Of a stretch of 64,000 nt of DNA, positions 4,063-45,115 are shown piece by piece (position 1 is the stretch's first letter; every line of letters starts with the position of its first letter). The stretch is taken from positions 11,222,001 to 11,286,000 of the forward strand of contig OX597815.1 of assembly GCA_951406725.2 (NCBI GenBank), read 5' to 3'. The DNA is from Octopus vulgaris (lineage: Eukaryota). A program made the translations under genes and the position numbers. The notes beneath the pieces were generated by a model. The model did no database searches, had not been told where the DNA came from, and saw nothing but the letters and a program-made list of their open reading frames with translations.

Positions 4063-4291
4063 GGCGGCGAGCTGGCAGAAACGTTAGCACGCCGGGCGAA
4101 ATGCGTAGCCGTATTTCGTCTGCCGTTACGTTCTGAGTTCAAATTCCGCTGAGGTCGACTTTGCCTTTCATCCTTTCGGGGTCGATAAATTAAGTACTAG
4201 TTACGCACTGAGGTGGATGTAATCGACTTAATCCGTTTGTCTGTCCTTCTTTGTCCCTTCTATGTTTCGCCCCTTGTGGGCAATAAAGAAG
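4063..4291 (+). mobile_element. tRNA-derived SINE, family B (central GCCTTTCATCCTTTCGGGGTCGATAAA domain, MetaSINE-like)
   Basis: GGCGGCGAGCTGGCAGAA head and GAGTTCAAATTCC B box. 16-bp TSD CATATTAAGAACATCT at 4043 and 4294. Confidence 0.85.
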
Positions 4292-4365
4292 CACATATTA
4301 AGAACATCTAAACTATTGTAATTATAAATCAGCGCATTGAAAGCCTGCCAAATATATAAATATAT

Positions 4366-4779
4366 ATTTCTTTATTGCCCACAAGGGGCTAAACATAGAG
4401 GGGACAAACAAGGACAGACAAAGGGATTAAGTCGTTTTCATCGACCCCAGTGCGTAACTGGTACTTTATTTATCGATCCCGAAAATATGAAAGCAAAGTC
4501 GACCTAGGCGAAATTTGAACTCAGAACTTAACGACAGACGAAATACCTATTTCTTTATTACCCACAAGGGGCTAAACACAGCGAGGACAAACAAGGACAG
4601 ACAAACGGATTAAGTCGATTACATCGACCCCAGTGCGAAACTGGTACTTTATTTATCGATCCCGAAAGGATGAAAGGCAAAGTCGACCTCGGCGGAATTT
4701 GAACTCAGAACGTAACGACAGACGAAATACCGCTAAGCATTTCGCCCGGTGCGCTAACGTTTCTGCACGCTCGCCGCCT
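4366..4779 (-). mobile_element. Family B SINE, tandem (head + 2 bodies) form
   Basis: Two body/tail units joined at GACGAAATACC|TATTTCTTTATT (~4547). TSD CCAAATATATAAATA at 4348 and 4780. Confidence 0.85.
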
Positions 4780-13594: not shown

Positions 13595-14112
13595 AACCTC
13601 AAATTTTGGGGGAACGGATTAAGTCGACTACATCGACCCCAGTAAGTAACTGGTACTAATTTTATCGACCCCGAAAGGATGAAAGGCAAAGTCAACGTCT
13701 GCGGAATTCGAACTCAAAACCTAACGGCAGACGAAATACCTATTTCTTTATTACCCACAAGGGGCTAAACACAGAGGGGACAAACAAGGACAGACATAGG
13801 TATTAAGTCGATTACATCGACCCCAGTGCGTAACTGGTACTTAATTTTATCGACCCCGAAAGGATGAAAGGCAAAATCGACGTCAGCGGAATTCGAACTC
13901 AAATCCTAACGGCAGACGAAATACCGCTGAACATTTCGTCCGGCGTGCTAACAATTCTACCAGCTAGCGGCCTTAATATAATATAATATTTTCTACTCTC
14001 GGTACAAGGCCTGAAATTTTGGGGTACGGAGCCAGTCGATCAGATCGACTCCAATACGCAACTGGTACTTAATTTCGCCCGGCATGCTAACGATTCTGCC
14101 AGTTCGCTGCCT
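13595..14112 (-). mobile_element. Cluster of family B SINEs (tandem form plus internally deleted copy)
   Basis: Consensus matches, with the shared junction at ~13740. Confidence 0.8.
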
Positions 14113-14454
14113 TAACACAATATAATATAATATAATAAATGTGAATGACAGTGTGTCAGTGAGCCACACTTTATCAACTTTACTCCAAGACGTCGTAGAG
14201 CAGCATATCAGACCATTTTTTTGCGACGGATATGATCATCATTGGGATATGACTCTGGAGGAAGCAATTGCGACAAATTCTCAGGAACATGTCAGATATC
14301 TGTTTGCAGATTTTCCCATTCAGGGTCAGTTGCTTAAAAGCTAGTGCATATATATATGTATATATATATATATGTTAATAAAATAGAACATATGCATATA
14401 TATAAACATATATGTACGTACCTACCTCTACATGTACATATACACGCATATATG

Positions 14455-14853
14455 TGTACAGGACACCAAAAAGACGTCGAACACATAGAGAGACGAAAAA
14501 CATAGACACAAACCAAGGAACAGGACAAGCAAAAAAGAAAAAGAGATACAGGACAATAAGCACAACGAAAAATCCCCTTCTTCAGTCGCTAAGGTTTCAT
14601 CTACTCTACGTTTCGAAGGATAAAAGCGAGACGTATACTTCGAAGAAACTTCCTTCCTGCGAAAAGCAAATCAATTAAAATTCTGAGATCTTTTAGGGGT
14701 AAAAAATAAAAAAGCAAGACGGTAGTACAAACATATAAACATAAAAAAAATTATATATAAACAGTTGAAAAATAAATATATAACAGTGAGAGACAGGACA
14801 AGGAGAACAAGATAAGAAGGGCTGTTTACGCCAGACGAAAAAAGTAATGCAAA

Positions 14854-14855
<2 letters not shown>
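14455..14855 (-). mobile_element. (TA)n-flanked non-coding element carrying a rearranged hammerhead (PLE-derived, family P1)
   Basis: Bounded by TA runs. Its T/G-rich 3' region resembles those at 16570-16730, 29755-29846 and 44980-45096. Confidence 0.6.
14573..14635 (-). ncRNA. Non-circularly permuted (pseudoknotted) hammerhead ribozyme candidate
   Basis: UACGU-C-UCGCU-uuua-UCCU-uc-GAAA-CGUA-(16 nt)-AGCGA-CUGAAGA-AGGG. Stem III is 5 bp, stem I 5 bp and stem II 4 bp, with a GUC site. Confidence 0.7.
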
Positions 14856-14913
<58 letters not shown>

Positions 14914-14969: not shown

Positions 14970-15010
<41 letters not shown>

Positions 15011-15015
<5 letters not shown>

Positions 15016-15629
15016 CAAAATCAGAAAATGGAGAAATACATCTAAATCATTAATCAAGTATCAGATAATACCCAATCACATACTTTATTGAACCACTACA
15101 TATGAACATTAAGATTAAACAAAACAGCGTACATGAATGAGTAATACAATACAATAAGTATAATCATTATAAGAGGATATAAATAAATAAATATAAATAG
15201 ATATAAATATAAATATAAATATACACTATATCTTACAGCTGTAAGATATAGTGTATATTTATATTTATATCTATTTATATTTATTTATTTATATCCTCTT
15301 GTAATGATTGTACCCATTGTATTGTATTACTCATTCATGTACGCTGTTTTGTTTAATCTTAATGTTCTTATGTAGTGATTCAATAATTTATGTGATTGGG
15401 TATTATCTGATAGTTGATTAATGATTTAGATGTATTTCTCCATTTTCTGATTTTGTATTATTAATTTATGGTAAAAATATTTTTACCTTTGCCCATGTAA
15501 TACAGTAAGTGAATTAATTGCATCGCAATTCTTAACATTTATGTATTAACTTTGTTGGGTAATTCACTAGCAGTATATTGGATATATATTATCCCATGGA
15601 GGGTTGAATTTGCAACCCCTATCTCAATT

Positions 15630-15689: not shown

Positions 15690-15921
15690 CAGGGTAATAA
15701 AATTTACAGAAAAATTTTACTACCAGTGGCCTAGCGTAAAAATCATTAGTCAATAGACTATATATTATTCATATAAAATACAGTGTATATTGAAACACAT
15801 TAAGTGGTTTCCATCATAGGAAGCCATTACGCTAGAAAGGACAGTTAAAATCCAAACCACTAATTAGGGTTAAATTCTCGAAGGGAATGAAAGATAAAAA
15901 CATTTACCATCTAATTCAATT

Positions 15922-15995
15922 CCCGGACCATGGTTTCTGACTTATTTCAGTAAAATAAAAATGATTAATTTACTGAGGCCGTCTTCATCAGCGGG
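15922..15995 (-). ncRNA. Type I hammerhead ribozyme, long stem II
   Basis: CCCG-CUGAUGA-aGAC...UCAGUAAA/UUUACUGA...GUCa-GAAA-CCAUG-GUC-CGGG. Palindromic ACCAUGGU stem III. Confidence 0.75.
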
Positions 15996-16130
15996 TGAGC
16001 CTTAGATTAAATATACACACAACGAGATCAATCCGGCATGCGCAGTGGATTTGAAAAAAATTAAAATGTACAAGCAATGAGTTTACATGCTGGATTGATC
16101 TCGTTGTGTGTATATTTAATCTTAGGCTCA

Positions 16131-16203
16131 CCCGCTGATGAAACGGCCTCAGTAAATTAATGATTTTTATTTTACTGAAATAAGTCAGAAACCATGGTCC
16201 GGG
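16131..16203 (+). ncRNA. Type I hammerhead ribozyme (inverted partner of 15922-15995; 1-nt deletion in stem II)
   Basis: CTGATGA at 16135-16141, GAAA at 16188-16191, GTC at 16197-16199, stem I CCCG/CGGG. Confidence 0.7.
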
Positions 16204-16343
16204 GATTGGATTAGATAGTAAATATTTTTATTTTTTATTCCCTTCGAGAATTTAACCCTAATTAGTGGTTTGGATTTTAACTGTCCTTTCTAGCGTAATG
16301 GCTTCCTATGATGGAAGCCTCTTAATGTGTTTTATATATATGT

Positions 16344-19693: not shown

Positions 19694-19745
19694 TTGGTGA
19701 ATTGAAGAAATGGAGCTGAACGCAGATTGAACAGAAATCGTTTTA

Positions 19746-19834
19746 TTTCATTCTACACGTGTTTCGAAAGGCACAAATTACCAAAATCCGATGGAATAAT
19801 GGGACCATATTGTGTCTTTCTCTTCAGGAAGAAA
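19746..19834 (-). ncRNA. Type I hammerhead ribozyme (left arm)
   Basis: Reverse complement of 20357-20445. Confidence 0.8.
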
Positions 19835-20356
19835 ATAGGAAATCCGTTGGAAAAACAAAAACAGAACAGAGGCAGAGCAAAAACAAATCGAACTATGCTC
19901 CTAAGAGCCCATGGCGAAACTGTTTATCAGTGTATGTTGAGAACCGGTGGCTGAAGAATTCAACGGATCAGGCATCGGTCAATCATGTGGGTGAGGGGGC
20001 GTAGATGTTCTTTGTGACCGAGAATAAAGTTCTGACTATTTAAGGAATATTGGATGTTTTATAAGGGGCGAGAAAAAATCTACTTAGAGACGTGTGTGTG
20101 TGTATACTGTTCTATATACGTGTGTGTTATAAAACATCCAATATTCCTTAAATAGTCAGAACTTTATTCTCGGTCACAAAGAACATCTACGCCCCCTCAC
20201 CCACATGATTGACCGATGCCTGACCCGTTGAATTCTTCAGCCACCGGTTCTCAACATACACTGATAAACAGTTTCGCCATGGGCTCTTAGGAGCATAGTT
20301 CGATTTGTTTTTGCTCTGCCTCTGTTCTGTTTTTGTTTTTCCAACGGATTTCCTAT

Positions 20357-20445
20357 TTTCTTCCTGAAGAGAAAGACACAATATGGTCCCATTATTCCAT
20401 CGGATTTTGGTAATTTGTGCCTTTCGAAACACGTGTAGAATGAAA
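20357..20445 (+). ncRNA. Type I hammerhead ribozyme (right arm)
   Basis: UUC-CUGAAGA(20364-70)-GAAAGaCACAA...UUGUGcCUUUC-GAAA(20426-29)-CACGUG-UA-GAA. Palindromic ACACGUGU stem III and a GUA site. Confidence 0.82.
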
Positions 20446-20657
20446 TAAAACGATTTCTGTTCAATCTGCGTTCAGCTCCATTTCTTCAATTCACCAATAA
20501 TGTTCTAATTTCAATTATCCGCACAAACGCACGGTTGCAACACCATATGGTTGTACCTCCAACCGTGCTGTTTTACTGCTGTGATTTTTGCTACTAAGGT
20601 ATCGGTTAAACTTTTGATTAATCTACTACAAGATTATTCATCTTTCTATTTCACATA

Positions 20658-27954: not shown

Positions 27955-28797
27955 TTTCTACTCTATGTACAAGGCCCGAATTTTTGGGGGAGGTGGCCCA
28001 GTCGATTAGATCAACCCCAGTACGCAACTAGTACTTATATATCGACCCCGAAAGGATGAAAGGCAAAGTTGACAATGCAGTGTCTTCTGGCTATTAAAAA
28101 CTTTCAAAATAACTGCGCTTTCTTTTGAAACACTTCAAAATGTTTCTGAGATTCTGAAAAGCAGACAATAGTGTATCTAATAATAATGATCTATTCGTAT
28201 CGACAACAGTTTAATCGCAACAATTCTTCAATTGCCAAAAAGCAACAATTTATGGCCCTTATTCTTCCCATATTAAATTCCGCCGAGGTCGACTTTGCCT
28301 TTCATCCTTTCGGGGTTGATAAATTAAGTACCAGTTGCATACTGGTCTAATTGACTGGTCTCCTCCGTAAAATATTCGGCCCTTGTGCCTAGAGTAGAAA
28401 AAAATATTCTTTACATATTGTTACAACTACTGCTGCTCCTCTGAAAAACAGGATGGGTATCAACTCCTCCTTAAAACACATGATACTCCTCTTTGTGGAG
28501 CAATCATGTGCGTCATTCACTAAATATTGTCCCCATACACCTCACAGCGTTGTTTCCGCCACATACATATTTCTTTATTACCCACAAGGGGCTAAACACA
28601 GAGGGGACAAACAAGGACAGACATAGGTATTAAGTCGATTACATCGACCCCAGTGCGTAACTGGTACTTAATTTATCGACCCCGAAAGGATGAAATGCAA
28701 AGTCGACCTCGGCGGAATTTGAACTCACAACGTAACGCAGACGAAATACCACTAAGCATTTCGCCCGGCGTGCTAACGTTTCTGCCAGCTCGCCGCC
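27955..28797. mobile_element. Three family B SINE copies (27955-28073 minus, 28275-28400 plus, 28567-28797 minus)
   Basis: Consensus matches. The first two carry the alternative tail and face each other. Confidence 0.75.
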
Positions 28798-29103
28798 ACA
28801 TACCGAGGACTGCTAAAACCCGAACACTCTCTGTCTAGTTACGCTTCATCAACTACAGACACCTGTTCGTCGTTCATTCTGCACTTCAAGATGTTTACGT
28901 ATAACAAAAGCTGTACTTATTGGGGAGTTAATGACTACGGTAGCTATGCAGAATCACGTATCTTACAGCCTCGATATGTTTTTACTCACATAGTCTATAA
29001 TAAGTATATCTTTTCTGAGACAATTACTGAAGTAAAAGCTTCCCCACATCTGTTTGTATGCAAGCGTATTAAATATAGACATAGCTTTTTGTATATACAT
29101 ATC

Positions 29104-29149
<46 letters not shown>

Positions 29150-29439
29150 TCTTTCTTTCTCTCTCTCTCTCTCTCCCTTATTCCCCCTCCTTTCTTTCCC
29201 TCTCCATCCGTTTCCCCCCCTTCTACGTTTCTCTATCTCTCTCACCTCCAGCCCCCTCGATCTGTCTCTTTCTTCTCCTCCCTCGTCCACCTTCTCTCTC
29301 TTTTCATCTGTCCCTTTCTCTTGTCTTTTGTTCTCACGTGACCGCTAGCCGCTGTTGAACGCTCTTTTCGTTCCAGCAGCCGTTGAAGCAACACGTACTT
29401 GTTCGTCTCCCTGTGGCCATTAGGCACAACTTCATAAGC

Positions 29440-29844
29440 TAGCCCCATGCTCAATTCGTCCTGTCGAAAGACCCTTGTCCTACGTCCTGGTTTTGTTTTG
29501 TTGTTTATTCTTTATACTTTATTTTTACCGTTATTGTTTTACGTTTTTGTATTCTTATTGTTGTCACGTATTCTGTATTTTTGTTCGTGTACTTCGTTCG
29601 TTTTCCGTCCTCGTGTTGTATACATTCGAAGCTTTCTTCCAGGGGATCTAATGCACTTGGCTTAGATTTCCCGTGGCGGGCTGGCCATATCGGAGCAATC
29701 TCAAGATTAATCAGCCGAAATTGCTAAGATGATCTGGTTCTTGACTGATGACTGAGGGCTTCGAATGTCCCGTCCTGTGGTTCTTGTGTCGTCTCTGTGG
29801 CGTTTCATGTTCTTGTCCATGTCTGTAATTATTTTTACTGTTTA

Positions 29845-29846
<2 letters not shown>
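29440..29846 (+). mobile_element. Family P1 element ending in (TA)n, with rearranged HHR
   Basis: T/G-rich segments flank the HHR, and the 3' end abuts the TA run at 29847. Confidence 0.6.
29694..29755 (+). ncRNA. Non-circularly permuted (pseudoknotted) hammerhead ribozyme candidate
   Basis: AGCAAU-C-UCAAGA-uuaa-UCAG-cc-GAAA-UUGCU-(13 nt)-UCUUGA-CUGAUGA-CUGA. Stem III is 6 bp, stem I 6 bp and stem II 4 bp, with an AUC site. Confidence 0.72.
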
Positions 29847-29880
<34 letters not shown>

Positions 29881-44936: not shown

Positions 44937-44938
<2 letters not shown>

Positions 44939-45096
44939 ATGCTCGAAATGAGGAGTAGGTGGATAGCCGACATTTGATGAAGGGTCGTTCTTTATATTAC
45001 TTGTCCTGATTTCCATTTGTTCCACTCGTTGTTTGCGTATTCAACTCATTTGTTTTCGTATTTCACTTTGTTTACAGTTTGTGACGTCCTGTCTCT
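44937..45096 (+). mobile_element. Degenerate truncated family P1-like element
   Basis: TC-GAAA(44945-48)-25 nt-TTGATGA-AGGG, the same order and spacing as 14573-14635. TA-flanked. Confidence 0.5.
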
Positions 45097-45115
45097 ATAT
45101 ATGCATATATATATG

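Follow-up and report, generated by a model that had tools for sequence, protein, structure and literature searches.

Does the minus strand at about 14585 of this 64,000-nt window (the whole stretch of octopus DNA that was analysed) carry a working ribozyme, built from hammerhead core blocks in an unusual order, and, if so, which element does it serve? Read along the minus strand, the cleavage site (S) comes first, followed by the GAAA block (G) and then the CUGAnGA block (C), an S-G-C order that is not obtainable by rotating hammerhead types I-III. An earlier note had described such a rearranged hammerhead between 14635 and 14575, and the letters and coordinates that it gave for the core blocks are all correct. 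In our reading, to which we assign a probability of roughly three in four, the S-G-C core blocks lie in a non-coding tandem repeat and form part of a predicted six-helix pseudoknotted ribozyme; cleavage after 14630 is likely, and the ribozyme likely works for an element whose copying enzyme is Penelope-like, probably of the Naiad lineage.

The split-order hammerhead motif at 14585 is real, and its block order is borne out by a descriptor search, by shuffled controls and by covariation. An S-G-C descriptor found two matches only in the 64-kb window, at 14585 on the minus strand and at 29745 on the plus strand. On 500 dinucleotide shuffles it gave 13 matches without a stem II, 3 with the stem II of the earlier note and 1 with the upstream stem II described below, and with either stem II condition there were never two matches in one shuffle. 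When the descriptor was restricted to Watson-Crick pairs, the 14585 copy was missed and only the second copy, at 29694, was found. Descriptors for the canonical orders (types I-III; CGS, GSC, SCG) had no matches in the window, and Rfam at its gathering threshold had no hits there. Nested folding gave no signal for the fold (z 0.09; pair probabilities of stems I and II at most 0.07), which is expected because the helices cross, and which gives no support either.

The core has the letters of a hammerhead. Across families, CUGAnGA, CGAAA and U16.1 show no variation and H17, which is C, A or U, is never G, and the GAAA block, the U16.1-H17 site and the G10.1-C11.1 pair are all present; the positions are those of the hammerhead numbering, of which A9-G12 and G10.1-C11.1 were separately confirmed. 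Stem III (UACGU/ACGUA) and stem I (UCGCU/AGCGA), both proposed in the earlier note, are genuine and covary in aligned relatives. The copies at 14585 and 29694 have the same topology with independent stem sequences, again as had been claimed, and covariation is found in both lineages.

Stem II is where the earlier description fails, since its true partner strand lies upstream and not after the core. The proposed AGGG/UCCU register is 77% paired in 11 aligned relatives, with no compensatory changes, and 500 of 500 shuffles score as high. In the same relatives (11 of 15 alignment rows; 4 rows shifted by columns were left out), the upstream pairing of GAAGG (14656-14652) with CCUUC (14619-14615) is 100% paired, with three of five pairs changed on both sides and 0 of 500 shuffles. 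The 5' strand of stem II thus lies upstream of the cleavage block, in the G10.1-C11.1 register. In every well-kept family, the strand before GAAA has its partner, in this canonical register, in a 5- to 6-mer located 20-26 nt upstream of U16.1, as GAAGGA/UCCUUC in the family of this copy (family A), as GGCUGG/UCAGCC in the family of the 29694 copy (family E), and as GAGCA/UGCUC, GACACC/GGUGUC, GGCCGG/CCGGCC and GCCCAA/UUGGGC in others.

Counts over larger samples agree with this placement. Among the first 100 pattern matches, 26 cores retain stems I and III, and an upstream pairing of at least 5 bp is found in 19 of them, compared with 7 of 624 null windows; the post-core strand forms 4 bp in the direct register in none of the 26 and in some shifted register in 19. 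A second sample of 40 regions, picked by hand for differing 3' halves, contained 26 cores with stems I and III; 23 of these have the upstream stem (at least 5 bp in register), and 15 have post-core pairing of 4 bp or more. In a swap test between 13 family representatives, for whose clustering the upstream strand was disregarded, the scores of upstream stem II, stem I, stem III and a further helix, J, were each reached in 0 of 100,000 permutations, and that of post-core stem II in 12,607; seven representatives of the second sample gave 246 for the upstream stem as against 7,273 of 100,000.

These data also bear on the simplest alternative, a plain type-SGC hammerhead with block C intact, in which the post-core strand forms stem II (in the register of the earlier note or in a skip-one register, GGGG/CUUC) and the upstream strand is an off-switch only. 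The 4-bp skip-one register is 91% paired, with one of four pairs changed on both sides and 8 of 500 shuffles as high, in this copy's lineage only; the pairings of at least 4 bp counted above in 19 and 15 of 26 cores point the same way, and one extra base at the post-core junction occurs among the published SGC motifs (PMC10085705, in the part of that paper drawn on here). Against it stand the missing covariation in the register of the earlier note, the complete lack of direct-register pairing in the 26 cores, and the absence of post-core stem II pairing from the Naiad-linked family and several others. In family A, moreover, the duplex with the post-core strand is worth -5.0 kcal/mol and that with the upstream strand -7.3 kcal/mol, and the post-core strand has a partner of its own, in helix K. 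Type SGC has block C unbroken and the stem II strand 0-2 nt after CUGAnGA, and neither is found here. We consider this alternative improbable and return to the upstream stem II, with which the predicted fold takes the following form.

14695-14699, minus strand: 5' strand of helix K (CCCCU), predicted to pair with the strand directly after the core; the weakest helix.
14657-14694, minus strand: hairpin L, directly next to K and to stem II; in this copy its 5' strand has lost the outer 5 nt.
14651-14656, minus strand: 5' strand of stem II (GAAGGA, its first G being G10.1), upstream of the cleavage block.
14645-14649, minus strand: 5' strand of helix J (GUUUC), with covariation; its role is proposed by analogy with the type SGC helix between stems I and II.
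14630-14635, minus strand: 5' strand of stem III and cleavage triplet GUC, with the predicted cut after 14630.
14625-14629, minus strand: 5' strand of stem I (UCGCU), with covariation.
14615-14620, minus strand: 3' strand of stem II (UCCUUC, its last C being C11.1), with covariation.
14607-14614, minus strand: GAAA core block and 3' strand of stem III; CGAAA is invariant.
14594-14598, minus strand: 3' strand of helix J (GAAAC), with covariation.
14579-14590, minus strand: 3' strand of stem I (AGCGA) and CUGAAGA core block; CUGAnGA is invariant.
14574-14578, minus strand: 3' strand of helix K (AGGGG, the strand assigned to stem II in the earlier note), with covariation.

From 5' to 3' the order of strands is K5', hairpin L, stem II 5', J5', stem III 5'-U-H-stem I 5', a 4-nt link, stem II 3'-GAAA-stem III 3', J3', stem I 3'-CUGAnGA and K3'. 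The earlier note had thus captured the core blocks and had missed about 65 nt on the 5' side (up to 14699), helices J, K and L, the host element, its link to Naiad and the 5-nt deletion in L.

In 12 sequences of this copy's lineage, the six-helix structure is paired in 88.9% of 398 cells, 22 of 34 pairs are changed on both sides and 0 of 500 shuffles do as well, while slid controls are 41-49% paired; as the sequences are related and were picked for intact upstream sequence, such shuffle counts are not probabilities. Within this alignment, helix K is 82% paired with two of six pairs changed on both sides, and hairpin L has five of eight compensatory pairs. In the E lineage, four helices are paired in 92.0% of 288 cells, with 16 of 24 pairs changed on both sides. 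Together with the swap test and the upstream-stem counts, the covariation of the two lineages upholds the earlier suggestion that structure has been under selection across subfamilies. K and L are both present in 22 of 61 copies compared with 279 of 3,050 shuffles, a comparison for which the null is loose; a separate swap test of K and L used best-scoring copies.

Since the post-core strand pairs with the strand before hairpin L, and L abuts stem II, there is no direct connection between A9 and G10.1. Helices K and L are predicted to be inserted at the A9/G10.1 junction, with the open ends of the molecule in K, and the whole is predicted from sequence to be a six-helix pseudoknotted ribozyme whose three-dimensional fold would be that of a hammerhead. 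Among 16 distinct family A segments, hairpin L is intact in 10, not scorable in five and deleted in one, the window copy, which has lost 5 nt in this helix. The window copy is therefore best regarded as a slightly damaged example which, with this later loss, may be slow or dead.

Hammerheads of type SGC, namely HRIMA-1 and its variants, were described by Eckert, Friedrich, Weinberg and Weinberg in 2023 (PMC10085705), in the part consulted, from 583 metatranscriptome sequences, none of them in genomes of known organisms, and these RNAs cleave in vitro at 0.007-0.19 per minute; the same source knows a type CSG from two metagenome sequences. The octopus fold shares with type SGC the block order, three mutually crossing stems, a stem I-II link of 3-4 nt (4 nt here) and a helix between the strand that follows stem II 5' and the one that precedes stem I 3'; this helix is J in the octopus and connects the free ends of stems I and II. 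It differs in that block C, unbroken in type SGC, is split by K and L between A9 and G10.1, and in that type SGC comprises environmental sequences only, whereas copies of the octopus fold in this animal genome number in the tens of thousands. An account of hammerheads with additional helices, reportedly that of Weinberg et al. 2015, could narrow the novelty of such a core. In the portions covered of the literature searched (including PMC13725137, PMC10162972, PMC12192606 and PMC6765202), we came across no animal hammerhead described as having an SGC, CSG or split-core form. Eckert et al. assume that CUGAnGA and its stem II strand are inseparable, and the search patterns given in the part consulted demand CUGAUGA(U)G joined to stem II and would therefore miss the octopus fold (PMC10085705). 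Elsewhere, one extra base between positions 9 and 10.1 is common in hammerheads of Penelope-like elements (PMC4209133), and helix II can be built by a pseudoknot, as in the PK hammerhead (PMC11300833). In the hammerheads with core insertions or extra helices presented in the consulted portions of these two papers and of Perreault 2011 (PMC3088659), A9 adjoins G10.1 or lies within one base of it, and no helices are inserted.

Crossed helices could also form between two RNA copies or tandem units, as in the minimal type I hammerheads of other Penelope-like elements. Two or more cores occur in 11 of 30 family A loci, and metazoan hammerheads of this group are described as functioning as dimers (PMC4209133, in part). 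However, all helices of the octopus fold are long enough to form within one copy, no palindromic loop is present, the 4-nt link and helix J fit the monomeric SGC design, and published SGC monomer constructs cleave (PMC10085705, in part), so that we see a dimer as very unlikely and continue with a fold made within one unit.

Evidence that the RNA cuts itself comes from the 5' ends of genomic copies. Reverse transcription primed 3' of the cut should often stop just past it, and a pile-up of 5' truncations at that point can be read as a footprint of cleavage. We hand-counted distinct insertions among the first 100 matches listed per search, and 47 of 54 truncation junctions fall at +1 to +11 after the predicted cut (23 of 27 in lineage E, 24 of 27 in lineage A; 6 exactly at +1). 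None falls in the 9 nt before the cut, even though TATA is present there in family A. Of 38 junctions at a control anchor 3' of the core, 11 lie within the closest 12 nt, which is what an even spread would give (Fisher p 1e-8 versus the cut). Reverse-strand totals for family E, with each insertion counted once so far as the matches listed show, are 743 compared with 64 at the control, with a peak of about 53 versus 2 junctions per nt. Microhomology in AT-rich sequence or pausing of the reverse transcriptase could add to the pile-up. As copies break off just after the predicted cut, the RNA likely self-cleaves, and the ribozyme likely cuts after 14630; the bond between 14630 and 14629 that the earlier note had singled out is in this way indirectly backed.

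The same data speak to a non-catalytic fold derived from a hammerhead and retained as a binding or pausing signal for the reverse transcriptase. Such a signal might be expected of a core interrupted at A9/G10.1, a form for which we found no activity described in the portions of the literature consulted; the fold also keeps a conserved position near the 3' end of the element, and pausing could likewise bunch truncations. The catalytic letters nevertheless remain invariant (CUGAnGA, CGAAA and U16.1, with H17 never G), and the truncation step lies at the predicted bond rather than at the edge of the fold. We think there is little chance that the fold is non-catalytic, and we retain the reading of a self-cleaving RNA.

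The repeats that carry the fold in the window are the following.

14371-14856, minus strand: family A copy, 5'-truncated, about 490 nt of a non-coding tandem repeat of about 877 nt (blastn to the full unit).
14857-14911, no strand: (TA)n tract at the truncated 5' junction.
14348-14378, minus strand: fixed 3' end of family A, where an internal AT patch runs into a TA-rich target.
29147-29847, plus strand: family E copy (unit of about 780 nt), with the same fold at about 29625-29768.

The family A copy is 95.5% identical to the full unit over 14856-14370 (blastn). In the 2.8-Gb genome, 40 of 1,994 family A candidates were scored, the other copies being 94-96% identical, and in one locus (L022) the units are spaced by 878 and 865 nt. 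Family A copies have variable 5' ends; in 26 of 30 cases they stop at a single point that follows the cleavage triplet by 261-265 nt, and the remaining four run into the next unit. Family E, for which 40 of 2,541 candidates were scored and all were listed at 100%, has a fixed 3' end in 26 of 30 copies. Both families are young. A (TA)n target, which is common to the other Penelope-like element here, a fixed 3' end, 5' truncation and tandem partial copies are all present, and the units are non-coding and tandem with one hammerhead each, as in retrozymes. Unit-to-unit joints were seen in sequencing contigs, and such joints also exist in tandem DNA.

The fold is not confined to these two families. 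A random 200 kb beside the window gave one match, at chance level, with the stem I/III filter, and pattern searches were for this reason used instead. Genome-wide, core words in S-G-C order and spacing number 15,016 and 18,706, compared with 1,472 and 2,811 for reversed controls, an excess of about 29,000 cores, which belong to at least a dozen families. A family of pattern matches (L145, L147 and L199, at about positions 1500, 1500 and 440) that has both core words at S-G-C spacing departs from the six-helix fold and was excluded.

The surroundings of these copies are rich in other repeats. At several loci (L012, L015, L018, L022, L101, L202, L212, L326), families, or two copies of one, lie adjacent or back to back within a few hundred bases, as expected from a shared (TA)n target and inverted insertions. 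A 5'-truncated copy of a third family (C) sits between two TA tracts at 44937-45100 (plus strand) of the window; it starts a few bases past the predicted cut and carries a C-to-T change in its core. The window also has four large, near-perfect inverted repeats (15002-15469, 15786-16340, 19694-20497 and 4111-4546; arms 82-95% identical), two of them bounded by TA tracts, which may be fold-back ends of Penelope-like elements. An abundant repeat of about 180 nt, partly tandem, occurs at 4358-4731, 13600-14110 and 28600-28800, and this SINE-like sequence appears to resemble octopod SINEs.

Which enzyme copies these units is suggested by the Naiad group of Penelope-like elements. In the part of their account that we draw on, Craig, Yushenova, Rodriguez and Arkhipova (2021, PMC8557442) report that Naiads prefer (TA)n, lack canonical hammerheads, in some cases carry unexplained "core" and "half core" motifs, and are long dead in cephalopods. 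By eye, we recognised the six-helix form in 9 of the 54 consensus sequences in the supplement of that paper, a count from part of the motif hits only, as line ends hide motifs; by file order, these are one from Clytia, three from Acropora, two from Morbakka, one from a crustacean and two from Octopus. Helix K is imperfect in both Octopus consensuses, and one Acropora consensus has one mismatch in stem II. Six nematode Naiad consensuses in supplement parts 13-16 end in an unsplit type-CSG hammerhead with block C intact. Several arthropod consensuses in parts 16-19 have CCCCUGACGA or CCCCUGAAGA cores in another arrangement.

The six-helix fold follows Naiad-type reverse transcriptases in this genome. 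A motif from an octopus Naiad consensus has 363 genome matches (control 0), and an S-G-C core lies at most 3 kb downstream, on the same strand, of the Naiad-type reverse transcriptase in 15 of 63 loci (11 places), compared with none of 40 loci with another Penelope-type reverse transcriptase. The Naiad-type domain scores below the cut-off for Pfam RVT_1. The Naiad family of this genome and, in the supplement as covered, the nine published consensuses end in the same fold as the octopus repeat, and Naiads and the repeat are alike in (TA)n insertion, fixed 3' ends, 5' truncation and partial tandem copies. They differ in that the repeat has no open reading frame and, outside the fold, no nucleotide similarity to the Naiad 3' UTR (none was found for family A), and in that families A and E are young, whereas cephalopod Naiads are reported as long dead (PMC8557442, in part). 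All 15 linked cores belong to a family other than A, no reverse transcriptase was found adjoining family A loci, and no reading frame with an N-terminal GIY-YIG and a C-terminal reverse transcriptase was found in family A or E loci. Broken Naiad-type reading frames occur elsewhere in the genome, and no intact partner was found among 140 Naiad-type reverse transcriptase matches (no open frame longer than 325 aa) or in another 20 distant loci; as scoring covered 134 of 752 Naiad candidates, an intact but distant Naiad may have been overlooked.

The fold may thus have come from Naiad while the young families A and E are now copied in trans by a different element, an intact one of the Penelope type that encodes 784 aa. 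[quoted passage not shown] On the other side, no S-G-C core was found in 29 of its loci, at the nucleotide level it resembles none of the units A, E, C and F, and the Naiad candidates were scored only to the extent given above. We regard this mobiliser as a tentative possibility, and a Naiad-lineage enzyme as the probable source. By eye, copies of the 784-aa element (L345:352-3580, plus strand; L332-L360) carry a minimal hammerhead-like motif in canonical order, with the core UUGAAAG instead of CUGAnGA.

Taken together, the observations suggest a cycle in which tandem transcripts would be cut once per unit at 14630/14629 by hammerhead chemistry, giving unit-length RNA of which a part would be circularised or left uncut. 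A Penelope-like enzyme acting in trans, with reverse transcriptase and endonuclease, would nick (TA)n and prime at the AT patch, which lies about 263 nt 3' of the cut. With cut RNA as template, the reverse transcriptase would run off near the cut and leave short copies, and on uncut or re-ligated (circular) RNA it would run through and leave unit and multimer copies. The window copy, like others with one or two intact sites, spans an intact site, which implies a template that was uncut or re-ligated. Non-LTR retrozymes (Cervera and de la Pena 2020) provide the nearest parallel: as presented in part of a recent preprint (bioRxiv 10.64898/2026.07.22.740005), they consist of non-coding tandem units, several hundred bases long and with one hammerhead each, and are believed to be non-autonomous Penelope-like sequences with circular RNA. 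Their hammerheads, in that preprint, are of type I only, often needing dimers, whereas the octopus repeat has the permuted six-helix form and does not belong to type I.

We think it probable that an active hammerhead with a split core in non-circular order is the missing ribozyme of Naiads across cnidarians, crustaceans and molluscs. The nematode Naiads, in retaining an unsplit CSG form of the same circular class, would then record the rewiring of a non-circular permutation, and tens of thousands of genomic copies would retain the cut site in the form of piled-up 5' ends. The six-helix fold would explain the reported absence of hammerheads in animal Naiads and so offers an answer to the published puzzle of how Naiads multiply without one. 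Non-circularly permuted hammerheads are now found in animal genomes at high copy number and are no longer only unassigned environmental RNAs, and the stated rule that CUGAnGA and stem II are inseparable is broken by the octopus fold. As standard descriptors and Rfam all miss this fold, the number of ribozymes counted in invertebrate genomes may be a large underestimate, and the truncation footprint provides a way to infer, from genomes alone, the cleavage of Penelope-like elements and the templates that they use.
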